10,159 bases of DNA from Deinococcales bacterium (GCA_031414595.1 JANNVX010000117.1:1-10159); one strand, 5' to 3'; positions 1-10,159 are shown, numbered from the stretch's first letter. Made by a program: numbers and translations. Notes: generated by a model from the letters alone, not told the origin.

Positions 1-2
1 CA

Positions 3-28
3 GGACAGACACAGGGGTCTGTCCCTAC
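3..28 (-). repeat. GTAG-family REP hairpin (variant A)
   Basis: Minus strand reads GTAG-GGACAGAC-CCCTGT-GTCTGTCC: a GTAG tetranucleotide followed by an 8-bp stem. Confidence 0.85.
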
Positions 29-50
29 AAAATCCATAAAAATACGTCAG

Positions 51-76
51 GTAGGGGCGGACCCCCGTGTCCGCCC
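51..76 (+). repeat. GTAG-family REP hairpin (variant B)
   Basis: GTAG-GGGCGGAC-CCCCGT-GTCCGCCC. Same architecture as variant A, with two compensatory A-T to G-C stem changes. Confidence 0.85.
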
Positions 77-135
77 TGTGACCAATTGTCTGTTTTTGGT
101 CTATTTGAAATCAGGAAGTTATTCTTGGACAGTTC

Positions 136-1404
136 CTAAGAAACCAACAATGCCTGAGCTTCTTGCTCGAGCCGAACAACCCCTTGGACTTTGGCAAGTT
201 CAACGGCTTCTAAAGCTAGGCTCGAGTCATTATCTTTTTGGGCAACCAACAAAAGCGTGCGTAAAAGTAACGGCTGATGCGTCGTGGCTCGAGCCTCAGT
301 TAAGGCGTTGCGGGCAAAACTCCCGATTTTGGTAATCGCATACAAACTCATAAGCGCCCGAATCGTGGCGGTGCTGTCTTTGCCACTTCTGGCACGTTTG
401 AAGGCACGTTCTGCCATCTCAAGGGCTTTTTGTTTAGCGCCCCAAATCGCATGGGCATGGGCAAGTACCGCTAATGTTAAGGCACTGGCTTCTTCGGACA
501 GGACTTCGCTAATACCAACGGCTTGACCAAGCGAAATAACCGCTTCTTTGGGTTCTGTACTCTCTAAAATGGCTTGTTGCAGCTTTGCTTCACCAGCAAT
601 GGTCTTGGCAGACATAGCAAGAAAACCATCTTCGCTCTTTTTTGCCTCGAGAAAAGCGGCTTCGCAATTTTCTAAACATTCAGAGAAACGCTCCAAGAAA
701 CACAAAGCATTGGCTCGGTGCAACAACGCCCAACCTCGAGACTCGCCGCTTGGCAGGGTTTTGAGGGCAGTCAGCGCCTCTTCTAAGCGCCCTAGGCGTA
801 CCAGTGCAGCCGCATAATTAACGCTTGCCTCGAGTTTGGCTACTTCCTCGAGTAGAGGTAGGGCTTGTTCGATGGTTTGGGCAGTCTTTAAAATTCGTTT
901 GCGTTGCCAATAAAATTTTGCAAGTTCAAGTAAAAGTAAACCTGCAAACCTAGGCTCGAGTTTTTCTTGTTCGGCTTGCACATACATCAGATTTTTTTGT
1001 GCTTCCTCGAGCCGCCCGTTCTCCTCGAGTCCAGCCGCATTCTCGAGCAGCGCAACCAAGAAAATTCGGCGCAAAGCAAAACGCTCTCGGGCTAACCAAT
1101 CCTCAAATTCTGCTGTGCCGTTTGGCAAATTCGGGGCAAATTCGCCTTTTAAGTTATGTAATGCTTTTAAGTTGTCGCTGCTGGCGCGGTACAGCAGCAC
1201 ATCCGAAGCGCACTCGAGCCGCCACATCTTGCCAATTTGTTCAATATACGGCGCAAAAACACTTAAATTGGTGGGTAAAACAATTTCTATTGGTGTATCG
1301 CTAGAAGCCAGTCGGACAAGGCAAAAAAGTAATTCAGGTGCGGGTTCAACAATAGCATCATTGATTTTAAATTCAAGCCTACCCATTAAGCGAACCGATA
1401 ACAT
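136..1404 (-). CDS. BTAD-like / tetratricopeptide-repeat protein (SARP-like N-terminus), 422 aa
   Basis: Long ORF. N-terminus LSVRLMGRLEF resembles SARP/AfsR starts. GEFAPNLPNGTAEFEDWLARER resembles the BTAD motif. The Ala/Leu/Glu-rich helical repeats are TPR-like. No P-loop seen. Confidence 0.75.
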   Translation of the reverse strand: MLSVRLMGRLEFKINDAIVEPAPELLFCLVRLASSDTPIEIVLPTNLSVFAPYIEQIGKMWRLECASDVLLYRASSDNLKALHNLKGEFAPNLPNGTAEFEDWLARERFALRRIFLVALLENAAGLEENGRLEEAQKNLMYVQAEQEKLEPRFAGLLLLELAKFYWQRKRILKTAQTIEQALPLLEEVAKLEASVNYAAALVRLGRLEEALTALKTLPSGESRGWALLHRANALCFLERFSECLENCEAAFLEAKKSEDGFLAMSAKTIAGEAKLQQAILESTEPKEAVISLGQAVGISEVLSEEASALTLAVLAHAHAIWGAKQKALEMAERAFKRARSGKDSTATIRALMSLYAITKIGSFARNALTEARATTHQPLLLRTLLLVAQKDNDSSLALEAVELAKVQGVVRLEQEAQALLVS

Positions 1405-1416
1405 GACGCGATGCTA
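1405..1416 (-). promoter_or_regulatory. Leaderless-type -10 element for the BTAD/TPR gene
   Basis: Minus strand reads TAGCAT-cgcgtc-ATG (TANNNT-N6-ATG). No good -35 seen. Confidence 0.55.
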
Positions 1417-1448
1417 CTAACTTGGTTTGTCCTCTGCTAGGGACAGAT

Positions 1449-1477
1449 TTGCAAAAATCTTCAAAAAGATGTATACT
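1449..1477 (+). promoter_or_regulatory. Sigma70-type promoter of the gntR-put operon (leaderless)
   Basis: TTGCAA (1449-1454), 17 bp, TATACT (1472-1477), 7 nt, ATG (1485). No Shine-Dalgarno. Confidence 0.8.
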
Positions 1478-1484
1478 GTATACA
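1470..1484. promoter_or_regulatory. Putative GntR operator TGTATAC-T-GTATACA
   Basis: Perfect 7-1-7 palindrome covering the -10 and the predicted transcription start. It fits the GT-Nx-AC consensus of GntR-family sites. Confidence 0.75.
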
Positions 1485-2156
1485 ATGTCAAACCGAGATG
1501 CCCTATTTGCCCGTCCGCAATTGGTGCGAAACGAAGTCTACGAGCATCTGAAGCTCGAGATTCTATCGGGTATTCTCGAGCCGAACAGCAAACTTGCCGA
1601 AATCCCACTCTCTGAGCGCCTTGGGGTCAGTCGCACCCCCGTGCGTGAAGCAGTCCAACGCCTTGCCCAAGACGGACTGGTGTTAATACAAGCCAATAAA
1701 GGCGCAAAGGTACGCGGCATCAACGCCCAAGAAATCGAAGAAATTTATGCAGTGCGTGAAGTGCTGGACGGACTGGCTGCCAGACTTGCTGCCCAGCACC
1801 ACACAGCAAAAAACCTAAAAGCCATGCAAACCGCTCTAGGTAAACTCGAGAATGCACCCAGCACCGCCTACACCGAACAGGTGGCTGCCGACCTCGAATT
1901 CCACAATGCCATCGCTGCCGCAAGTGGCAACCATACGCTCGAGACGACGCTGCACAGCCTCGGGCAGAGTGTTGCTCGTGTCAAACTGCTGACTCGAGAA
2001 ACCAATCAAACTAAAGTTACAGAACTTTCGCATCACGCCATATTAGAAGCAATTCAAAATAAAGACCCAGAAGCTGCCGAATTCGCGGCTCGAGAACACG
2101 TCCGAGTGTTTAGACAACTCCTCCTCAATTCATTCAAAGGAAATCAAGATGCTTGA
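1485..2156 (+). CDS. GntR family transcriptional regulator (FadR/FCD subfamily), 223 aa
   Basis: wHTH motif LSERLGVSRTPVREAVQRLAQDGLV. FCD motifs DLEFHNAIAAASGN and HHAILEAI. Start moved to ATG 1485 on promoter geometry. Confidence 0.95.
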   Translation: MSNRDALFARPQLVRNEVYEHLKLEILSGILEPNSKLAEIPLSERLGVSRTPVREAVQRLAQDGLVLIQANKGAKVRGINAQEIEEIYAVREVLDGLAARLAAQHHTAKNLKAMQTALGKLENAPSTAYTEQVAADLEFHNAIAAASGNHTLETTLHSLGQSVARVKLLTRETNQTKVTELSHHAILEAIQNKDPEAAEFAAREHVRVFRQLLLNSFKGNQDA

Positions 2157-3066
2157 CCAATACTACCGTGCAGCAGTGCTGGGAATCGCCAACGCCGAAC
2201 CGATTAAAAACCTTGTGCAGACCCGTGGTTTCGGGCTTGCCAAACGCTTTGTGGCTGGAAACGAACTGTTAGACGCGATTAAAGCCGTGGAAACACTCGA
2301 GCAGGACGGGGTTCATGGGATACTCGATTTACTCGGCGAGATGATTAGCACCAAAGAACAATCCGACCCATTTGTACAAAAAATTCTCGAGATTTTCCCG
2401 AGTATTGCCAGTAAAACCTTTCCAAAATACGTTTCGATTAAACTTTCGCAGTTGGGCTTGGATGTTTCTAAAGACCTCGCCATCACAAACGGACGCAACA
2501 TCTTAAAAGCCGCCAAAGAAGTTGGTGCTTTTGTTCGTATAGACATGGAAGACAGCCCTCGAGTAGACGCGACTTTGGAAGTTTTTCGTACCCTGAAACT
2601 CGAGTTTGACAATGTGGGACTGGTTTTACAATCCATGTTGCGGCGCACCGAAAAAGACTTGGAGAATTTATCTGACCTTACGCCCAATTTACGAATTGTC
2701 AAAGGTGCGTACTTAGAAACTGCCGAACACGCCTACCCAGACAAAGCCGTGATAGACCACCAATACCGCCGTTTGGTTTACACCAATCTCGAGAAAGGCA
2801 ACCACACCGCCATTGCCACCCACGACCACAACATCATTAACGACATGAAACGTTTTACGACAGAAAGTAACATCCCCAAAGAACAATTTGAATTTCAGCT
2901 TCTATACGGAATTCGCCGCGACCTGCAAAAGCAACTGGCATCTGAGGGCTACACGGTTCGGGCATATATTCCTTACGGGCATGACTGGTACGCCTATTTC
3001 TCGAGACGAATAGCCGAACGCCCAAGCAATGCGCTGTTTGTGCTGCGCGGCATGATTGGCGGATAG
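2149..3066 (+). CDS. putB: Monofunctional proline dehydrogenase (PRODH), 305 aa
   Basis: Motifs RFVAG, SIKLSQLG, IDMED, LRIVKGAY, IATHD, EFQLLYGIR and YIPYGxxWYAYFSRRIAERP. Overlaps gntR by 8 nt. Confidence 0.95.
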   Translation: MLDQYYRAAVLGIANAEPIKNLVQTRGFGLAKRFVAGNELLDAIKAVETLEQDGVHGILDLLGEMISTKEQSDPFVQKILEIFPSIASKTFPKYVSIKLSQLGLDVSKDLAITNGRNILKAAKEVGAFVRIDMEDSPRVDATLEVFRTLKLEFDNVGLVLQSMLRRTEKDLENLSDLTPNLRIVKGAYLETAEHAYPDKAVIDHQYRRLVYTNLEKGNHTAIATHDHNIINDMKRFTTESNIPKEQFEFQLLYGIRRDLQKQLASEGYTVRAYIPYGHDWYAYFSRRIAERPSNALFVLRGMIGG

Positions 3067-3069
3067 AGT

Positions 3070-3092
3070 AAAAAGTGTCGTAGCTGCGACAC
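3070..3092 (-). terminator. Short hairpin after PRODH, with the U-tract on the minus strand
   Basis: GTGTCG-tagctg-CGACAC (3075-3092) preceded by AAAAA (3070-3074). Could be an antisense terminator or an mRNA-stabilising stem. Confidence 0.35.
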
Positions 3093-3147
3093 AAATTATA
3101 CTCGAGCAATCGGAAACCAAACTCGAGGAAAGGACGTAAAGGAATAC

Positions 3148-3627
3148 ATGAAAACATTTACTTTCAAAAAGAACTTTGCGCCACTTTGGTTAGCCGCTTC
3201 ATTGCTGGCATTGGTCAGTATTTTAAGTCTGACAGCCCCAAATCCAAACGCATGGTTTGCTTGGCTACTGATTACACCAATGTTGCTGGCACTTGTTTAC
3301 GGTTACTTTTACAGTCACGCCACAATAGACTCGGGTCACTTAAAAATCAGAGCAGATTTGTACTGGCACACGGTAAAACTCGAGGACATTGGACTCATAG
3401 AAGAAATAAACTTAAGACTCGAGCCAATGCTACACGCAGGATTTCGCAGTTGGGGTACGAGTTTGCCGACTTATAACACAGGAAATTTTACGTTAGCCAA
3501 CAATCAAAAAGGTTTTTTATTTGTTTCAGATGACCGACATGTGGTTCATATTCAAACAAAAAGTGATTTGCATATTTTGCTCAGTCTCGAGAATCCAAAA
3601 GAATTTGTGGCAGCGCTCAATGCTTAA
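3148..3627 (+). CDS. Membrane protein with bacterial PH-like domain (bPH_5-like), 159 aa
   Basis: Two N-terminal hydrophobic helices. The segment FRSWGTSLPTYNTGNFTLAN...HILLSLENP resembles bPH_5 family proteins. AAAGGA Shine-Dalgarno upstream. Confidence 0.7.
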   Translation: MKTFTFKKNFAPLWLAASLLALVSILSLTAPNPNAWFAWLLITPMLLALVYGYFYSHATIDSGHLKIRADLYWHTVKLEDIGLIEEINLRLEPMLHAGFRSWGTSLPTYNTGNFTLANNQKGFLFVSDDRHVVHIQTKSDLHILLSLENPKEFVAALNA

Positions 3628-4256
3628 TTCGAGAAGTTAGAGATTATACCAAAGAATGACAAACGCAAGTCACAAGAAATCCTACAATTTTATATTATAT
3701 GAATTCATAAATTGCATAAAAATTCTTGTACAAAACATAGAGAGGGACCATTATGCGTAAAGGGAATCAATTTCGTCTAGTTCCACCAATGAATGGAGGG
3801 TTTTGGATTTTAGTATTATTTGCGCTTTTACTTATGATTTATATGATTTTAAGTAATAAATCATTTAACTTTATTTCTCCATTTTTCTTAATTGTCTTGC
3901 TTTTTGGATATTTTGTTATGTTTTTAAATGATAAAAATAATTTTGTCTTAGTGAAAAAGAATAAAATAATTTTTTTGATTCAATCTTTATCTTTAATTAC
4001 AACTCCACTTAATTTTTCAAGTTGGGATATTGAAGAATTAAATATGAATGAAAGTTGCATTCTACTACCAAAAACAGAAGAGGCTAATTCTATTTTAAGA
4101 TTACACGAAATTTTGAATGATTCAGTAAATTATTTCGGTCTTAAAAAATTGAAAAATAACCAAACAATTTTTCGATTCCTCTCAAGAACTGATGTTCCAT
4201 TAGTAATTATTCCAATCAAATCAGGAGGACATATTCTGCTCAGTCTCGAGAACCCA
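3571..4256 (+). repeat. Imperfect 27-bp direct repeat (3571-3597 and 4230-4256) bracketing an AT-rich block
   Basis: catattttgctcagtCTCGAGaatcca versus catattctgctcagtCTCGAGaaccca, 25/27 identical. Both copies encode HILLSLENP. Confidence 0.85.
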
Positions 4257-4301
4257 GAAGCCTTTATTGCCGTCCTGAAGGAAGCCCATGCAAATACTTA
4301 A
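3753..4301 (+). CDS. AT-rich, divergent paralog of the upstream PH-like membrane protein, 182 aa
   Basis: Two N-terminal TM helices. The C-terminal region aligns with the previous gene (LxNNQxxFxFxS...IxxKSxxHILLSLENPxxFxAxL). GAGAGGGA RBS upstream. Confidence 0.65.
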   Translation: MRKGNQFRLVPPMNGGFWILVLFALLLMIYMILSNKSFNFISPFFLIVLLFGYFVMFLNDKNNFVLVKKNKIIFLIQSLSLITTPLNFSSWDIEELNMNESCILLPKTEEANSILRLHEILNDSVNYFGLKKLKNNQTIFRFLSRTDVPLVIIPIKSGGHILLSLENPEAFIAVLKEAHANT

Positions 4302-5169
4302 TGCCGCCCAAACCAAAGCGGCTCTCCCCTACTCGAGCCTTGCCGATGCCATCCGCGAAGTGCTGCTGGATGCCGATGCTTTTGCGCCTGAACGGGCGCG
4401 TCTCGAGTTACCAAATGGCGTGCTGCTCTTGATGCCCGCTAAAGATTCTGATTTTGCAGTCACAAAACTGGTCACAGTTCACTCGAGCAACACGGTGCTA
4501 CCCGCTATTCAGGGCGAAGTGATTCTGATGAATGCCCACACTGGCGAACGCCTGCTGATGCTCGATGGTGTGACCGTCACGGCTCGGCGCACCGCAGCCG
4601 TGAGTTTACTGGCTGCCCAGACCCTTGTGCCAAATAAAAGCGGGAATTTACTGATTGTTGGTAGTGGCACACAAGCCAGAAGTCATCTCGAGGCGTTCCG
4701 TGAGAATTTGGACATTGCACAAATCTGGATTACTTCAAGGAACTTTGCAAGAGCCTTAGCACTGGCAGAAGAATACGGGGTCATGGCTATCTCGAGGGGC
4801 GAAGAAGTGATTGAACAAGCCGATTTTATTTGCACCACCACAAACGCCGCCAGCCCTATCATTCCAGAAAACATTAAATCTAATGCTTTTATTGCTGCCG
4901 TTGGTGCGTACCGCCCTGACATGCTCGAGATTCCGTTTGGCATCACCCGCCGCGCTCGAGTCGTGGTGGATGATTTAATTGGAGCGCATTCAGAGGCTGG
5001 GGATATTATCCAAGCGGGTCTGGATTGGAGCAAAGTAGAATCATTACAATCTGTGCTGCAATTACACGCACCTAGCACTCAACTTACTTTGTTCAAAAGT
5101 GTTGGCTGTGCCTTGTGGGATTTAGCGGCGGCAAAACTGGCTTACTCGAGCCTTGGGAATCTGCCATGA
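4288..5169 (+). CDS. Ornithine cyclodeaminase/mu-crystallin family protein (OCD or delta1-pyrroline-2-carboxylate reductase), 293 aa
   Basis: Motifs LLLMPA, TARRTAAVS, Rossmann IVGSGTQA, AVGAYRPDMLE and LFKSVGCALWDLAAA. Confidence 0.9.
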   Translation: MQILNAAQTKAALPYSSLADAIREVLLDADAFAPERARLELPNGVLLLMPAKDSDFAVTKLVTVHSSNTVLPAIQGEVILMNAHTGERLLMLDGVTVTARRTAAVSLLAAQTLVPNKSGNLLIVGSGTQARSHLEAFRENLDIAQIWITSRNFARALALAEEYGVMAISRGEEVIEQADFICTTTNAASPIIPENIKSNAFIAAVGAYRPDMLEIPFGITRRARVVVDDLIGAHSEAGDIIQAGLDWSKVESLQSVLQLHAPSTQLTLFKSVGCALWDLAAAKLAYSSLGNLP

Positions 5170-5459
5170 CCGAAAACAATAATTTTGTTCACCCTTCTAT
5201 TAACCAAAGTTTGTATCCGCTCGAGATTACGGCACTGGTTGAAAAATCACTTTTTGAAGATAAGCGTGTTCGTGTCACCGATTTAGAAGGTTTGGTGATT
5301 AAAGATTTTAAGCCCGGCGCGGCAACTCGAGCCAGAACCACGGCGCAGAACCTGAGTAAAACCGAGTCCAAGCCGATGCTTGTTTGGTACGGGCGTTTGG
5401 TGGCGTTGCAAGCCAATTCAAGTGGTAAATTTTCTAATTATTTGCACGAAAAAATCTAA
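5166..5459 (+). CDS. Hypothetical protein, 97 aa
   Basis: ATGA overlap with the stop of the OCD-family gene suggests translational coupling. No recognised motif. Confidence 0.6.
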   Translation: MTENNNFVHPSINQSLYPLEITALVEKSLFEDKRVRVTDLEGLVIKDFKPGAATRARTTAQNLSKTESKPMLVWYGRLVALQANSSGKFSNYLHEKI

Positions 5460-5491
5460 CTTGATTTATTTAGGAAAAGGAGCAAAATGGT

Positions 5492-5704
5492 ATGATGAGC
5501 CTAGCCGAAGTCAAAGAACGAGTAACTGAACTCTCACAGCAAGAACGTGCTGACTTACAAGCGTTTCTACTGAGCTTAGAAGTAGAAGAATTAAGCCCAC
5601 AATGGCTCACTGAGATTGAGCGTCGTCGTGCAGATTTTCATTCTGGAAAAGTCAAATTTTTAACCCATGACGAGGTTTTCGCATCAACTCGAGTTAAAGA
5701 GTGA
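5492..5704 (+). CDS. Addiction-module antitoxin (putative addiction module component family), 70 aa
   Basis: Acidic small protein with LSxxERAxL and WxxEIERRxxxxxSGKV...TxDEV. AAGGAG RBS. Overlaps the toxin by GTGA. Confidence 0.85.
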   Translation: MMSLAEVKERVTELSQQERADLQAFLLSLEVEELSPQWLTEIERRRADFHSGKVKFLTHDEVFASTRVKE

Positions 5705-5991
5705 AGCCGTTATATCATCCAGATTTTCTCGAGGAAATGCTGTCCTTATCAAATCAGTTTCAATCAGATGGTTCAAATCCTTTTACAATTGCGCTCGAAG
5801 AAACAATTGCAGATGCTTGTTTGTTCCCCCATGCTGCACCCAAAACCCAGATTGATGGTATCCGCAAAAAGACTGTTGGAAAATACGAATTTCATCTGAT
5901 TTATGAAGTTCAAGCCGATACAATCTTGTTCTTCGCCATAGCCCATAAACGCCGTCATCCTTTTTACTGGATTCACCGCCTTGATTCATAA
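5701..5991 (+). CDS. Type II toxin, RelE/ParE superfamily, 96 aa
   Basis: GTG start coupled to the antitoxin stop. Motifs GIRKxxVxKYxFxLIY and C-terminal AIAHKRRHPFYWxxR are typical of ParE-like toxins. Confidence 0.85.
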   Translation: MKPLYHPDFLEEMLSLSNQFQSDGSNPFTIALEETIADACLFPHAAPKTQIDGIRKKTVGKYEFHLIYEVQADTILFFAIAHKRRHPFYWIHRLDS

Positions 5992-6007
5992 GGCTTTAGG
6001 AGTAACT

Positions 6008-7564
6008 ATGAACCTTCCAGAGTACCATTGCGAACCGTACACCGACTACACCCACCCAAATCACGCGGCTGCCTACCGACAAGCGATTGCCAAAGTCTCG
6101 AGCGAACTTGGCAAAGATTACCCGCTTATCATTGGCGACCAAAAAATCATGCTCGAGGATAAAGTCGTTTCGCACAATCCGTGTAAGCCATCTCAGATTA
6201 TTGGGCAAGTCTCGAGTGCCACCAAAGAACATGCTGACCAAGCCATAGAAGTAGCCTATAAAGCCTTTGAAACATGGAAAAACACCCCCCTCGAGACGCG
6301 AGTAGCTGTATTGGTCAAAGCCGCCGCGATTATTCGTGAGCGCAAACTCGAGTACAACGCTTGGCTGACTTACGAAGTCGGTAAAAACTATGCCGAAGCC
6401 GAAGGCGAAACCGCCGAAGCGATAGATTTTCTCGAGTATTACGCCCGCAGTGCCTTAAAACTCTGCAAGCCGATTCAGACCTATCAAATGGCTGGCGAAT
6501 CTGACCGTGCCGAGTATATTCCGCTTGGTGTGGGCGTTAGCATCACCCCGTGGAATTTTCCTTTTGCAATTTTTTTAGGGCAGGCATGTGCGCCGATTGT
6601 GGCTGGCAACTGTATGATTGTCAAACCTGCCGAGGACAGCGCCGTGATTGCATTTAAGGCAATTGAATTGTTGCTCGAGGCTGGGTTGCCATCTGGGGTG
6701 ATCAATTTTCTACCGGGGCTGGGTGAGGTTGTCGGAGATTACTTGGTCAAACATCCAAAAACCCGTTTTATCAGTTTTACAGGTTCTAAAAACGTTGGTT
6801 TGTACATCAATGCCGAAGCCGCCAAAGTGGTGACTGGTCAACGCTGGATTAAGCGTGTGACGCTAGAACTTGGTGGCAAAGACGGAATGATTATTGATGA
6901 AACCGCCAATCTCGAGGAAGCCGCTACTGCCGCTGTCGCTGGGGCATTTGGTTTTGCTGGGCAAAAATGCAGTGCCTTAAGTCGTTTAATAGTGGTCGAA
7001 AGTGTGTACCCCGAAATTCTCGAGAAAGTAATTGCTAAGGTCAATGCCCTAACGGTCGGCGACCCGCTCGAGAATAAGTATGTCAACGCCGTCATCAACT
7101 TAGAATCGCTCGAGAAGTCACGCACCTACTTGGAGCTTGCCAAAACCGAAGGGCGAGTTGTGACTGGCGGCACAGCCTCAAGCAACCCCGAAACCGAAGG
7201 CTACTTTGTGCAACCCACCGTTGTTGCCGATGTCAAACCGACTGGTAAACTTGCCCAAGACGAGATTTTCTCGCCGATTCTGGCAGTTATTCCTGTCAAA
7301 GATTTTGAAACCGCGATGTTTGTGATGAACGACACCGAATACGGTTTAACAGGTGGACTGTTCTCGAGCGACCCAAGCCGTCTCGAGTATGCCGAACGCG
7401 AACTGCATGTTGGCAACTTGTACTTGAATCGTAAAATTACTGGCGCAATGGTTGGTTGTCATCCGTTTGGAGGGTTCAATCTGTCTGGGACAGATTCCAA
7501 AGCGGGTGGACCTGATTACCTACTGCACTTTTTACAAATGAAAAGCATTGCTCGTAAGAACTAG
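6008..7564 (+). CDS. pruA: 1-pyrroline-5-carboxylate (glutamate-gamma-semialdehyde) dehydrogenase, 518 aa
   Basis: ALDH motifs ITPWNFP, SFTGS, LELGGK and catalytic GQKCSA. P5CDH-type EAIDFLEYY and LYLNRKITGAMVGCHPFGG. AGGAG RBS (5998-6002) supports ATG 6008. Confidence 0.95.
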   Translation: MNLPEYHCEPYTDYTHPNHAAAYRQAIAKVSSELGKDYPLIIGDQKIMLEDKVVSHNPCKPSQIIGQVSSATKEHADQAIEVAYKAFETWKNTPLETRVAVLVKAAAIIRERKLEYNAWLTYEVGKNYAEAEGETAEAIDFLEYYARSALKLCKPIQTYQMAGESDRAEYIPLGVGVSITPWNFPFAIFLGQACAPIVAGNCMIVKPAEDSAVIAFKAIELLLEAGLPSGVINFLPGLGEVVGDYLVKHPKTRFISFTGSKNVGLYINAEAAKVVTGQRWIKRVTLELGGKDGMIIDETANLEEAATAAVAGAFGFAGQKCSALSRLIVVESVYPEILEKVIAKVNALTVGDPLENKYVNAVINLESLEKSRTYLELAKTEGRVVTGGTASSNPETEGYFVQPTVVADVKPTGKLAQDEIFSPILAVIPVKDFETAMFVMNDTEYGLTGGLFSSDPSRLEYAERELHVGNLYLNRKITGAMVGCHPFGGFNLSGTDSKAGGPDYLLHFLQMKSIARKN

Positions 7565-7815
7565 CCCTCGGGTTCGCCTATAATTTCTCGAGCATCCTCA
7601 GCACACACTTCTGGCACGTACAGCATCACATCACCTTGGTACGCGCCAGCTTCGACTTCGATGACGTTATTGCCCATGACCCAACCAAAAGGGGTTCTTA
7701 GCACACTGGGAATCCCTTCTGGCTCGAGCATTCGCCTGAATGATTCGGCAATTGGGCGTGGTTGGGTCTCGAGGTAAACCCATGTGTTACCGCCTAGGGT
7801 GACTGTTTCGGTCAT
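7561..7815 (-). CDS. Small DUF2007-like (putative signal-transducing) protein, 84 aa
   Basis: Pattern W...AE...LExEGIP...LYVP...AEDAREII. Leaderless TAGACT-N6-ATG upstream. Shares the stop palindrome CTAG with convergent pruA. Confidence 0.7.
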   Translation of the reverse strand: MTETVTLGGNTWVYLETQPRPIAESFRRMLEPEGIPSVLRTPFGWVMGNNVIEVEAGAYQGDVMLYVPEVCAEDAREIIGEPEG

Positions 7816-7827
7816 GGGTTTAGTCTA
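7816..7827 (-). promoter_or_regulatory. Leaderless-type -10 element for the DUF2007-like gene
   Basis: Minus strand reads TAGACT-aaaccc-ATG. Confidence 0.6.
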
Positions 7828-7840
7828 CTGTATTTTGCCC

Positions 7841-7970
7841 TTGACGAAAGCATCTGGTCTGTGCTTACAATTAGCGCAGATGCTTCTGACCGCACGAGCT
7901 TGACCGCACAAGACCACCCCACTCGGGGTTTTGTCTTGTGCGAATCACTCGAGTGAACAGAAGTTTTTTT
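7841..7970 (+). promoter_or_regulatory. Promoter plus structured 5' leader (candidate attenuator) of the aminotransferase
   Basis: TTGACG (7841), 19 bp, TACAAT (7866). Mini-ORF 7880-7903 (MLLTARA*). 10-bp stem 7905-7914/7933-7942 within a longer imperfect hairpin ending in T7 (7964-7970). Confidence 0.55.
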
Positions 7971-8008
7971 ATGCTTGCTCGAGCAGGTTTGTGCTAAAAA
8001 GGATATGT

Positions 8009-9151
8009 ATGCGTAATCTCGAGCAAGTTCTTCTCACCCCCGGTCCTACGCCCATCGAGCCTCACGCCCAAAAAGCCCTGTCTTTCCCAATGCGTGGTCA
8101 TATGGATCCCGAGGTTTTTGCCCTGAATAATAGGGTTCAAGAAAACCTCAAAACATTGTATGGCGCAGATGACTCGGCGTTTACCTGTTTACTGGCAGGG
8201 ACTGGTAGCCTTGGTATGGAAGCTGGGTTTGTCAATCTGCTCGAGCCTCAAGATAAGGTTTTAATTTGTGCCAACGGAAGTTTTGGTTTTCGCATGGCGG
8301 AAATGTGCGAGCGGATTGGAGCGCGAGTTACGGTAGTTAAAGCGCCAATTGGTCTGGCAATTAAACTCGAGGATGTCAGGGCAGCACTCGAGGCAGATTC
8401 GTTTAAGCTGGTGGCAGTAGTGCATGGTGAAACCAGTACAGGTGTCTTAAATCCTGCCGTCGAAATTGCAAAACTAGCCAAATCTTATGGTTGTTTAGTG
8501 ACCGTGGATGCCGTCACCACAGCCGGAATGATGCCGTACAAGATGAATGAATGGGGGATTGATTATGCTTACACGGGTTCTCAAAAATGCCTCAGCGCCC
8601 CTCCGGGGGTTGCGCCAGTCGCCTTCTCGAGCGCCGCGATTCGGACTGTCGAAAACCGCAAAACCAAAGTACCACTTTGGTACGCCGACCTCGAGGGCTT
8701 GCAAGCCTACTGGAATCGTCAAGAGTACCATCATACTGTCCCAGTGCAACTGCATTATGCTTTGGATGCGGCTTTAACTGCTGCGCTTTCTGAGGGGCTA
8801 GAAGCTCGAGAAAGGCGTGTCCATGAAGTTGGCGCAGCCGCCCTTGCCGCCCTCGAGACAATTGGGTTTTCGGCGTTTGTGGATAATCCGTTGCAACGTT
8901 TACCCACAGTTTTGGCAGTTCGTTTGCCAAATTCTGTGCAAGATGTACCTGTGCGTTCTGGCTTGCGTGAACATGGCGTGATTGTGACTGGTGGACTTGG
9001 TGAAACAGCCGGTAAAATCTGGCGGCTTGGCTTGATGGGCGAATCGGCTAAACCTGCCATTTACCACCGTTTCTTTGATGCCTTAGAGCAAGTGCTAAAT
9101 GTAAAGGGCTTAATCAGCGCCTTTGATTCTAAACTTGGTATTCGGGCATAG
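8009..9151 (+). CDS. Class V PLP aminotransferase (alanine-glyoxylate/serine-pyruvate family), 380 aa
   Basis: Motifs [31 protein letters not shown]-lysine [15 protein letters not shown] and WRLGLMG. AAAAGGA RBS before ATG 8009. Confidence 0.95.
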
Positions 9152-9158
9152 AAAAACC

Positions 9159-9187
9159 TTGACTTTACAAAAACCATTGGATACCCT
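9159..9187 (+). promoter_or_regulatory. Sigma70-type leaderless promoter of the GNAT gene
   Basis: TTGACT (9159-9164), 17 bp, TACCCT (9182-9187), 6 nt, ATG (9194). Confidence 0.7.
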
Positions 9188-9193
9188 CAAACC

Positions 9194-9959
9194 ATGATTC
9201 ATTCACTTGGTTATAAAACCGATTTATTCTTGCGTGGTTTTGAAGGCGAAATTCTCGAGCGCAACGAGTACACCGTGATTCGCACACCGAAAAATCCGAC
9301 GTTTCGTTGGGGTAATTTTTTACTGTTCAAACGCGCTCCGACCCTTTCTGACCTCGAGCTGTGGCAAGCCGCTTTTAGCCTCGAGCATGGCGCAGTCCCA
9401 CACATTGCCCTTGGTTGGGATGACCCAGAACAAGGTGATGTTAGCGCATTTACGGCGGCTGGGTTTGACTTTGACCAAAGCATTGTCATGACTGCGACAT
9501 CGGTTCACCAGCCGCCAAAAATCAATCCCGATTGTCAAATTCGCCCACTCGAGGGGTCTGATTGGCTCGAGTGGATAGACATGGAATGTGCCATCAATGA
9601 AGCGCTACCCGAATCGGAGCGCGAGGGGACTGGCTACCGCGTTTTTGTTGAACGCAAAGGCGCAGAGATGCAACGCATGAGTGCAGCTGGTCATGGGCAT
9701 TTCTGGGGTGCTTTTCTGGGGAATAGATTGGCAGCAAGTTTGGGCTTGTACTTCTGGCAGGGCGTGGGCAGATTCCAGTGGGTGGCAGTTTAGGCGGCGT
9801 GGTTTATGCGGCACACTGGTGCATCATGTGGCAAAACTTGGACTCGAGCAGGTAGACACACTGGTGATGGTGGCTGACCCTGAGTATGTGGCGGCTGGAA
9901 TTTACGAAAGTGTGGGGTTTAAGCCGAGCGAAAAACAATTCCAACTCGAGAAGGTTTGA
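9194..9959 (+). pseudogene. GNAT family N-acetyltransferase, frameshifted at about 9790
   Basis: The first frame ends RFQWVAV* (TAG 9791-9793). The +1 frame continues with the acetyl-CoA motif RRRGLC and AAGIYESVGF to TGA 9959. Confidence 0.8.
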
Positions 9960-10018: not shown

Positions 10019-10158
10019 CTTAGGAACTGTCCAAGAATAACTTCCTGATTTCAAATAGACCAAAAACAGACAATTGGTCACAGGGCGGACACGGGGGTCC
10101 GCCCCTACCTGACGTATTTTTATGGATTTTGTAGGGACAGACCCCTGTGTCTGTCCTG
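10019..10158. repeat. Right copy of the 140-bp repeat (inverted), with REP hairpins at 10083-10108 and 10131-10156, truncated by the window edge
   Basis: Exact reverse complement of 1..140. Begins CTTAGGAACTGTCCAAGAATAA. Confidence 0.95.
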
Positions 10159-10159
10159 C

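Follow-up and report, generated by a model that had tools for sequence, protein, structure and literature searches.

The question raised by this locus is why a single six-base palindrome, CTCGAG, is so frequent in it. The locus is a stretch of 10,159 nucleotides from a Deinococcales bacterium (GCA_031414595.1, JANNVX010000117.1:1-10159), and the term window is used below for the whole of this stretch. The window is contig C117 of the source genome, G000, an assembly of 4,488,778 base pairs (bp) in 120 contigs with a guanine-plus-cytosine (GC) content of 47.2% and a completeness of 94%. A preliminary description of the window had reported about 75 copies of CTCGAG, and had proposed that the word is a genome-wide signature like HIP1, the highly iterated palindrome (HIP) of cyanobacteria, and that it is generated or selected by an orphan DNA methyltransferase, by methyl-directed repair bias, or by an uptake, recombination or nucleoid-binding system. 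We analyzed the word in the window, in the genome and in its relatives. The reading that we favor, with a probability of roughly 0.4, is that CTCGAG is a HIP-like word held by a site-autonomous fixation bias at the DNA level, and that the most likely mechanism of this bias is biased gene conversion.

Abundance of the exact word

An exact search of the window found 75 copies of CTCGAG, the first starting at position 166 and the last at 9945. In 200 dinucleotide-preserving shuffles of the window the expectation was 1.46 copies and the maximum was 6, and none of the shuffles (0/200) reached the observed number. Nine long open reading frames (ORFs) hold 64 of the sites, and all three codon phases are used, that is, 45 sites are read as CTC GAG, 7 as nCT CGA Gnn and 12 as nnC TCG AGn. 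When the synonymous codons of these ORFs were shuffled (n=200), the mean was 6.3 sites and the maximum 13, versus the 64 observed. In the pruA-like gene, the 13 sites consist of 10 Leu-Glu sites (CTC GAG) and 3 in the phase nnC TCG AGn; 10 of the 13 Leu-Glu dipeptides of the protein are written CTCGAG, and its Glu codons are 26 GAA and 17 GAG.

These results agree with the preliminary description as to the strong enrichment, the use of three phases (as it had said, the TCG AGn phase is used by sites 6097, 6211 and 7363 and the CGA phase by 1993 and 2089) and the Leu-Glu codons of PruA with Glu often written GAA elsewhere. Its list of non-coding sites stands in part. Eleven sites (3101, 3122, 5220, 5326, 5688, 5728, 7587, 7723, 7768, 9843 and 9945) lie outside the nine long ORFs, and two of the four it had named, 3101 and 3122, are among them. 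The other two, 7948 and 7978, fall within the aminotransferase gene if its longest possible ORF, which begins with TTG at 7931, is taken; the true start of this gene is uncertain, and it may lie downstream of both sites.

The enrichment extends beyond this locus. G000 contains 23,235 copies of CTCGAG, which corresponds to 5.18 per kilobase (kb) or about one every 190 bases, and the density is 2.5-8.6 per kb in all contigs that reach 5 kb. CTCGAG is the commonest hexamer of the genome by about 3-fold, and the next ones, at about 7,400 copies, are its own overlapping words. The observed/expected (O/E) ratio was 24, 44, 18 and 3.8 under Markov models of order 0, 1, 2 and 3, respectively. The maximal-order model (order 4) gave an O/E of 1.16, which we regarded as uninformative because the 5-mers are dominated by CTCGAG itself. 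The sequence read backward, GAGCTC, which served as a control word, has 6 copies. Thus, the proposal of a genome-wide HIP1-like hyperabundant palindrome outside cyanobacteria was supported, and, as described below, it holds lineage-wide and beyond codon usage or protein composition.

The exact word is the unit of enrichment. In G000, every base has a frequency of 0.17-0.30 at each flanking position from -10 to -1 and from +1 to +10, so that no position is conserved, and no conserved sequence beyond the core was found in these flanks that would indicate a dispersed repeat, a miniature inverted-repeat transposable element (MITE) or a repetitive extragenic palindrome family. CTCGAG holds 69% of all TCGA in the genome. 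Each of the 18 one-mismatch neighbors of the word has 173-1,368 copies, and together they have about 12,000. The neighbor-to-motif ratio is therefore 0.52, versus 18 under a neutral symmetric model, and because of this difference we infer a fixation bias toward CTCGAG of roughly 35-fold.

We then compared coding and non-coding DNA, using crude gene calls for G000 (3,610 longest ORFs, 86% coding). CTCGAG was as dense in non-coding (5.32 per kb) as in coding DNA (5.15 per kb), and in G013, another genome of the same family (f1), it was denser in non-coding (6.94 per kb) than in coding DNA (4.29 per kb). The sites in coding sequences of G000 are divided among the three phases as 11,880, 3,901 and 4,194. 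Their total of 19,975 compares with about 1,945 after a within-gene shuffle of synonymous codons, a 10-fold excess, so the disappearance of the enrichment under such a shuffle, which had been named as a possibility, did not occur in the genome or in the window. The force that holds CTCGAG thus acts on DNA, independent of reading frame and coding status.

The force nevertheless leaves its trace in proteins. Leu-Glu is the most over-represented of the 400 dipeptides in G000 (O/E 2.23; Glu-Leu 0.98), and 60% of it is encoded by CTCGAG. In a sample of 405 kb of G000 (GC 47%, 5.33 sites per kb), the coding sequences had 1,879 sites versus about 185 after the shuffle, and Leu-Glu occurred 16.4 times per 1,000 amino acids, 59% of it as CTCGAG. 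In 400 kb of G013 (GC 59%, 4.7 per kb), the corresponding values were 1,451 versus about 275, 14.6 and 50%, and in 400 kb of the word-poor relative G197 (GC 50%, 0.31 per kb) they were 111 versus about 97, 8.4 and 10%. In identical aligned orthologous regions, Leu-Glu was found 829 times in G000 and 477 times in G197. That is, a DNA-level force can rewrite proteins to the extent that Leu-Glu is roughly doubled.

The Leu-Glu encoded by CTCGAG was no newer than other Leu-Glu, since 129 of 526 and 84 of 303, respectively, match Leu-Glu in G197 (p 0.32), and at the positions conserved with G197 the share of CTCGAG was 61%, equal to the overall share. These values did not support the idea that amino-acid change, and not recoding, gave rise to most sites. 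Because CTCGAG-encoded Leu-Glu is not more often new than the rest, both the recoding of existing Leu-Glu and the creation of new Leu-Glu occur. In the most conserved proteins the density was modestly lower (Spearman -0.16 and -0.24). We also looked at ribosomal RNA (rRNA) genes as a test of constraint, and no rRNA primer motif was found in the G000 assembly.

A trivial cause, such as codon usage, proteins rich in Leu-Glu, a family of dispersed repeats or an artefact of assembly, might be suspected from the 45 of 64 coding sites of the window that read CTC GAG, and in one high-GC genus of the order (g9) codon usage brings both CTCGAG and GAGCTC to about 1 per kb. For G000 this explanation is already refuted by the shuffles and by the density in non-coding DNA, and we give it practically no weight. 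The unconserved flanks and the scarcity of GAGCTC also oppose it, as do the word-poor G197, which equals its own shuffle, and the orthologous positions of sites in independently assembled genomes.

Conservation, gains and distribution among relatives

For the analysis of retention, 50 kb of G000 was aligned to six congeners, with control hexamers as the baseline. The sites kept were 173 of 200 in G005 (controls 63%), 137 of 163 in G001 (58%), 103 of 145 in G004 (42%), 170 of 226 in G003 (28%), 122 of 185 in G006 (22%) and 117 of 156 in G007 (26%), or 66-87% over the six congeners versus 22-63% of the controls. Alignable non-coding sites were kept at 18/22, 10/13 and 8/13, versus 30, 21 and 25% of the controls. 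When the pruA codons of 13 family genomes were aligned, 8 site columns were occupied by CTCGAG in 10-11 of these genomes, and the 5 outgroups had different codons there, with residues that often differed as well. In 178 orthologue pairs of G000 and G013, which belong to different genera, 217 of 1,037 sites (21%) were shared, versus 6.6% of the controls, and 474 sites were found solely in G013. Between genera, therefore, retention is about threefold above background, yet the turnover is large.

The numbers of private sites in close pairs were similar (27 in G000 versus 24 in G005, and 26 versus 19 in G001), and the word therefore looks to be near equilibrium. In the gain-versus-loss comparison that had been suggested as a check, gains and losses were thus roughly balanced in number, and an unexpected asymmetry was present in the sizes of the changes. 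Among sites whose status differs between two close genomes, 20 of 50 (G005), 10 of 44 (G001) and 18 of 67 (G004) differed at three or more of the six bases. Control hexamers that differ did so at three or more bases in about 10% of cases (binomial p 4e-8, 0.006 and 8e-5, respectively), and composition-matched and central-CG controls in 7-10%. The recurrent alternatives to the word, TTAGAA/TTCTAA, CAAGGG/CCCTTG and CCAAAG/CTTTGG, use the codons that the genome prefers for an identical or similar peptide.

Gains and losses were then polarized by at least two agreeing outgroups. For the pair G000/G005, gains by one, two and three or more bases numbered 1, 1 and 6, and losses 11, 2 and 3, with 18 ambiguous sites; for G000/G001, the gains were 3, 0 and 2 and the losses 7, 4 and 3, with 20 ambiguous. 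The asymmetry in size had a Fisher p of 0.02 for G005 and 0.013 for the pooled data. A clean derived change from TTCTAA to CTCGAG is seen at position 17788 of locus L079, where G000 and G001 have CTCGAG and the four other genomes compared have TTCTAA; the divergence of the flanks between G000 and G005 is 5% there. Point mutation plus selection predicts gains from one-step neighbors, and for this reason many of the gains are whole-word conversion events or imports of old alleles, with examples of both.

The placement of the sites was also analyzed in G000. Pairs of CTCGAG less than 25 bp apart are depleted (1,376 versus 2,840), and there is an excess of distances of 50-200 bp. The spacing shows a 3-bp and a 21-bp pattern with peaks at 21 and 42 bp. 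A helical or spacing function was rejected as the cause of these peaks, which equal 7 and 14 codons and probably reflect codons plus the heptad patterns of Leu-Glu in helices. The ratio of variance to mean of the site counts was 0.88 in 500 bp, 1.00 in 1 kb, 1.5 in 5 kb and 1.74 in 10 kb, and control words gave similar ratios at 5-10 kb. That is, nothing points to maintained spacing, and the counts are near-Poisson at the scales covered (up to 10 kb in an assembly of 120 contigs). The four gaps of more than 2.5 kb in the genome, with no others of that size, have 32-39% GC and sharp edges, and they contain a polysaccharide cassette, a clostripain-family peptidase, an SUKH immunity protein and unknown ORFs. 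These large word-free gaps are imported cargo DNA, and CTCGAG is a sharp marker of native versus imported DNA in these genomes.

We next surveyed 251 genomes of the phylum, all of which were placed in one order (families f1-f5); most of these relatives are incomplete metagenome-assembled genomes (MAGs). The trait is graded across the order. It is shared by all 19 genomes of family f1, of which the other 18, in 5 genera, have 4.3-6.8 CTCGAG per kb with GAGCTC nearly absent, and the genera of f1 span 47-63% GC (the GC of the pruA gene in the alignment ranges from 0.47 to 0.63). In genus g7 (92 genomes) the word is depleted to 0.01-0.2 per kb. Genera g13, g18 and g19 and several genera of f2 have 1.4-3.5 per kb with a low control word, and genome G196 has 3.6 per kb.

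The clearest case outside f1 is G253, which has 7.0 CTCGAG per kb (L218), versus 0.3 per kb in G197 (L220), although the two genomes bear the same genus code and both have about 50.6% GC; the difference is more than 20-fold. At the pruA locus, G253 has 44 sites in 4.5 kb (GC 0.506) and G197 has 4 (GC 0.507). The possibility that G253 is a stray f1 genome was ruled out by the PruA tree, in which it clusters with family f3, outside the f1 clade (support 100/100). Of the 8 pruA columns conserved in f1, G253 occupies 3. Since G253 is phylogenetically separate from f1, the hyperabundance arose, or its agent was acquired, at least twice. The pair G253/G197 is a natural experiment for finding the responsible agent.

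No substitute hyperabundant word was found in G197. In G197:C1:1000001-1400000 (L353-L372), overlapping 8-mers around GCCTGTACAACC occur in about 31-39 copies in 400 kb with an O/E of 10-16, and this family of 8-mers is probably a dispersed repeat. Among the IMG/VR contigs listed, at least six loci (L249, L323, L322, L259, L250 and L338) carry 3-5 CTCGAG per kb with 0-3 copies of GAGCTC, and one word-dense contig among the matches listed has a GC of 0.42. These contigs may be phages of word-rich hosts.

Candidate agents and the mechanism of the bias

The preliminary description had placed the responsible gene outside the window, which was borne out, and had suggested a methyltransferase among other candidates. 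The genome of G000 is rich in these enzymes: it has 5 C5 matches, 8 N6_N4 matches over the cut-off, 1 D12 match, 4 strong N6_Mtase matches (type I-like), several long gamma-class fusions and 2 proteins with a TaqI-type recognition domain. G000 also strongly avoids many palindromes (GGCC has 152 copies, GATC 0.54 per kb, TGCGCA 2 copies, GGCGCC 3 and CGATCG 3, besides the 6 of GAGCTC). Together with the exceptional number of methyltransferase genes, this avoidance indicates that restriction pressure has been heavy for a long time.

None of the classes tracks the trait in the genomes sampled. These genomes are mostly incomplete and specificity is not readable from sequence, and the result is a lack of association and not a proof of absence. 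C5 is missing from G010 (91% complete) and present as a trace in G002, and no N6_N4 match at E<=1e-10 was found in G013 (one contig), G014 or G002. D12 is present in 17 of 18 f1 genomes, weakly in three, but it was not found in the high-density genomes G196, G090, G220 and G056, and it is present in the CTCGAG-depleted genomes G063 and G116 (strong), G102, G088 and G020. The TaqI_C domain was found in 5 of the 18 other f1 genomes and in neither G253 nor G196; the two TaqI-like methyltransferases were rejected as the cause for their sporadic occurrence (3/18 and 2/18 f1 genomes). Gamma-class matches occur in all 5 of the best genomes with unrelated architectures, and they were not resolved into orthologues. 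An attempt to pick ancient-resident methyltransferase genes by their CTCGAG content gave no discrimination, as nearly all have 3-8 sites per kb.

Nucleases were also sought. Vsr (PF03852) gave no match among 18 candidates scored in G000, the sole family genome searched, while the control matched in E. coli, B. subtilis and Caulobacter. The XhoI nuclease family (PF04555) gave no match in G000, but its control matched in 0 of 14 genomes and its sensitivity is unproven. An enzyme that cuts CTCGAG would predict avoidance of the word, not enrichment.

These results bear first on a model of the type described by Elhai (2015), in which a cognate and probably orphan methyltransferase for CTCGAG or TCGA, together with methyl-directed mismatch repair, ratchets near-sites into sites. 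The model would be supported by the co-occurrence of cyanobacterial HIPs with matching methyltransferases reported there, by the natural CTCGAG-specific 5-methylcytosine methylation of 533 of 560 sites in Halorubrum (PMC8112702), by the methyltransferase set of G000 with its two TaqI-type domains, and by GATC being too rare in this genome to serve as a strand mark. The absence of any class that tracks the trait speaks against it, and so does the fact that the deamination neighbors CTTGAG (1,154 copies) and CTCAAG (1,171) are not depleted and are among the commonest neighbors. In addition, strand-mark repair saturates near one site per kb according to Elhai (2015), and the density here is five times that value. 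The methyltransferase link is thus weakened, and we consider this model improbable.

Density bears likewise on an uptake-sequence drive, in which the competence machinery would prefer DNA with CTCGAG, perhaps methylated, and recombination would spread the word, as proposed for the DNA uptake sequences (DUS) and uptake signal sequences (USS) and recently for HIP1. HIP1 has been linked to transformation and type IV secretion genes (Rodriguez-Cruz et al. 2026), alleles with and without sites appear to have been exchanged between species, and imported DNA lacks the word. On the other hand, compared with known uptake sequences (about 9-12 bp, about 1 per kb), the 6-bp palindrome is much shorter and, at 5-7 per kb, much denser, and a preference at the level of the fragment should saturate and even out the spacing. 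Because the density is 5-7 per kb (about 5 in G000) and the counts are near-Poisson, density-limited models, whether they rely on a strand mark or an uptake tag and saturate near one site per kb, fit poorly, and the uptake drive seems to us slightly less probable still.

Two site-autonomous models remain: biased gene conversion of a very-short-patch-like kind, and additive selection on binding sites. The force required recognizes the exact duplex hexamer, acts site by site, ignores the reading frame and outweighs a moderate protein cost, and imported DNA needs a long residence to acquire the word.

Under the second model, each CTCGAG would be a selected binding site for an abundant DNA-binding protein, with a roughly additive benefit per site in nucleoid organization, in chromosome compaction or segregation, or as a mark of self-DNA. 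The retention at 3-4 times the level of control hexamers in coding and non-coding DNA agrees with this model, by the same argument that Xu et al. (2018) made for HIP1, and the persistence of the trait over 5 genera and 47-63% GC and the absence of the word from imported DNA also agree with it. However, there is no spacing signal beyond the deficit of pairs less than 25 bp apart, it is demanding that about 23,000 individually weak sites should be strong enough to alter amino acids, and an equal-GC congener does well at 0.3 per kb. Selection on binding sites is a possible explanation, which we rank below conversion.

We favor biased gene conversion because many gains involve several bases, amino acids are readily changed, and one congener thrives although it is poor in the word. 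The proposed mechanism is as follows. A continuing sequence-specific bias would hold the exact 6-bp word at about 5 copies per kb, acting per site and independent of neighbors, reading frame and coding status. Random point mutations would destroy sites, and the counter-force would restore or spread complete sites, up to a density limited by constraint on proteins and by recently imported DNA. Where an allele that carries the complete word is paired with a word-less allele, on sister chromosome copies or in DNA from relatives, a site-recognizing repair activity would resolve a short patch toward the CTCGAG strand, so that all differences within the word convert together. What we observed comprises the near-equilibrium and conservation of the sites, their independence of frame, their effect on the proteome, their distribution among lineages and the fact that many gains involve several bases; that the force would be conversion rather than selection is our interpretation.

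Several points weigh against conversion. The agent of the bias was not found among Vsr and the XhoI family in G000 or among the methyltransferase classes. The polarized counts are small, the ambiguous sites number 18-20 per pair, and some events are common to both pairs. The multi-base gains can be explained equally well as the import of old alleles by ordinary recombination: at position 10889 of L079, G000 has TTGTAT like the distant G006 while its nearest relatives have CTCGAG, and sites with three differences have somewhat more diverged flanks (0.154 versus 0.115). The gene calls are crude longest ORFs, and most of the genomes are incomplete MAGs. The polyploidy and competence of these organisms are our assumption from cultured relatives. 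Finally, Xu et al. (2018) took conservation above background as evidence for selection and not for biased repair; a standing conversion bias also preserves sites, and the present data cannot separate the two.

A bolder form of the conversion hypothesis can be considered, namely that complete CTCGAG words are written by a site-specific gene-conversion drive, each in one short-patch event, that this drive arose or was acquired at least twice (in f1 and in G253), and that HIP1 and highly iterated palindromes in general are caused by drives of this kind. The writing of whole words in single events is proposed on account of the 3-base jumps from versions in preferred codons, such as TTAGAA, and the drive would be amplified by multiple chromosome copies and frequent recombination. 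We regard this form as doubtful; if it is true, the G253/G197 pair would expose the responsible gene by simple genome subtraction.

Features of the window and comparison with known systems

The features of the window are listed in Table 1. The gene content of 1422-9151 resembles a cluster for proline/ornithine catabolism, with a GntR/FCD regulator, proline dehydrogenase, a bacterial PH-domain protein, an ornithine cyclodeaminase family protein, a PruA-like aldehyde dehydrogenase and a class-V aminotransferase. DNA related to the 422-amino-acid ORF at about 67-71% identity is present in G007, G006 and G002. Both sites of the first intergenic spacer are CTCGAG in G003 and G006/G007 and altered in G005.

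Table 1. Coordinates of the CTCGAG sites, genes and spacers of the window.
Feature	Position	Strand	Sites or starts	Basis or remark
All 75 CTCGAG copies	166..9950	both strands alike (palindrome)	75	exact search
CTCGAG starts, part 1			166, 221, 288, 646, 735, 829, 847, 955, 1006, 1024, 1042, 1213, 1554, 1575, 1845, 1938, 1993, 2089, 2296, 2386, 2558, 2599, 2788, 3000, 3101, 3122, 3379, 3418, 3586	
CTCGAG starts, part 2			4245, 4332, 4402, 4482, 4687, 4791, 4924, 4955, 5145, 5220, 5326, 5688, 5728, 6097, 6152, 6211, 6290, 6347, 6431, 6674, 6911, 7019, 7067, 7109, 7363, 7382, 7587, 7723, 7768	
CTCGAG starts, part 3			7948, 7978, 8018, 8240, 8366, 8387, 8626, 8690, 8805, 8852, 9254, 9353, 9380, 9548, 9566, 9843, 9945	
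422-amino-acid ORF	136..1404	-	12	without Pfam match
GntR/FCD regulator gene	1422..2156	+	6 (1993, 2089 in nCT CGA Gnn phase)	Pfam
Proline dehydrogenase gene	2149..3066	+	6	Pfam
Intergenic spacer	3067..3147	.	2 (3101, 3122)	outside long ORFs
Largest CTCGAG-free gap	3592..4244	.	0	flanking sites 3586 and 4245
Ornithine cyclodeaminase/mu-crystallin family gene	4288..5169	+	8	Pfam
Stretch outside the nine long ORFs	5170..5980	.	4 (5220, 5326, 5688, 5728)	
pruA-like aldehyde dehydrogenase gene	5981..7564	+	13	Pfam Aldedh, E 1.5e-139
Intergenic spacer	7565..7930	.	3 (7587, 7723, 7768)	outside long ORFs
Class-V aminotransferase gene	7931..9151	+	10	Pfam match starts at residue 63

The largest gap in the window lies in its kilobase of lowest GC (3001-4000, GC 0.359), and it mostly overlaps a segment missing from one related contig of sequencing run X5 (single contig, depth about 6). 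Contigs from four sequencing runs, representing relatives at about 88-95% likeness, were compared with the window. The X5 contig links 3561 to 4229, skipping 667 bases with 8 other letters between, and another contig (single, depth 6-7) has 2,102 other letters in place of 5452-6006. The segments 3561-4229 and 5451-6007 thus vary between close relatives in single contigs of depth 6-7. A repeat of about 140 bp, which contains no CTCGAG, is present in inverted orientation at the two ends of the window (1-140 and 10019-10159). The repeat is also at the ends of contigs C72, C45, C27, C70, C71, C62, C100, C68, C16, C116, C82, C69 and C23 and is internal in C33, and congeners carry it with 86-100% identity. 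It probably represents the terminal part of an insertion sequence or MITE, an element at which the assembly breaks.

The preliminary description had guessed that the enrichment may already be known for Deinococcota. This guess found no support: searches of full texts, with subscription journals and supplements outside their scope, turned up no report of abundant CTCGAG in Deinococcota or elsewhere, and the text of Elhai (2015) does not contain CTCGAG, Vsr or Deinococcus. We regard as new the graded distribution across an order with the separate case of G253 and its word-poor congener, the near-Poisson placement, the proteome baseline from related genomes, the asymmetry between single-base losses and multi-base gains, and the negative tests of methyltransferase association. 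The results are also a warning for binning, codon models and restriction-based methods.

Very-short-patch repair, which corrects mismatches autonomously at each site as directed by the sequence and makes a short palindrome more frequent, offers a mechanistic template for the favored conversion. In enterobacteria, the Dcm/Vsr system acts on CCWGG, needs a C5 methyltransferase and Vsr, and has a modest known effect on word frequency. The present case differs in that Vsr was not found in G000, C5 enzymes do not occur throughout the family, and there is no depletion of the deamination products.

The uptake sequences DUS (Neisseria) and USS (Pasteurellaceae) are non-palindromic, 9-12 bp long and present at about 1 per kb, and they have a known receptor. 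They resemble CTCGAG in having thousands of copies, in genes as well, in shaping peptide content, in being rarer in imported DNA and in that a molecular drive is possible. Unlike them, CTCGAG is an exact 6-bp palindrome at 5.2 per kb without flank information, and its spacing is near-Poisson rather than even.

The closest parallel is HIP1 (GCGATCGC, cyanobacteria), which like CTCGAG is a short, GC-rich, over-represented palindrome found in genes in all frames and between genes. HIP1 is described as 15- to 300-fold over-represented with a cause disputed for decades, and, again like CTCGAG, as conserved above background, lineage-wide and scarce in foreign DNA. Of the features of a HIP, CTCGAG has over-representation of at least 15-fold genome-wide, occurrence in all frames and in non-coding DNA, and conservation above background, and it is without a cognate methyltransferase association and a cyanobacterial lineage. 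It further differs from the 8-bp HIP1 in its length of 6 bp, its other phylum, a density about five times higher (5-7 versus about 1 per kb), the absence of a matching methyltransferase that tracks it, its near-Poisson placement up to 10 kb, and a stronger effect on the proteome, in which Leu-Glu is the top dipeptide. As to placement, the main support described for an architectural role of HIP1 is a periodicity of 10-90 kb, and the dispersion of CTCGAG was measured here up to 10 kb. The alternate HIPs (Elhai 2015; Xu et al. 2018) are similar in that a different palindrome is hyperabundant in particular lineages, patchily and with differences between close relatives. They are dissimilar in that their genomes are reported to have a word-specific methyltransferase (Elhai 2015), whereas none was found for CTCGAG by our tests and G197 is without a replacement word.

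The CTCGAG case disfavors any explanation that depends on a matching methyltransferase or reaches saturation at about one site per kb. Highly iterated palindromes have posed an open question since the 1990s, with biased repair, selection and DNA uptake under debate. The debate has been based on one phylum and essentially one word, and a second system makes the question comparative. The value of the CTCGAG system is that it is denser, belongs to another phylum, spans 47-63% GC, is graded across an order, and includes congeners of equal GC that are more than 20-fold apart.

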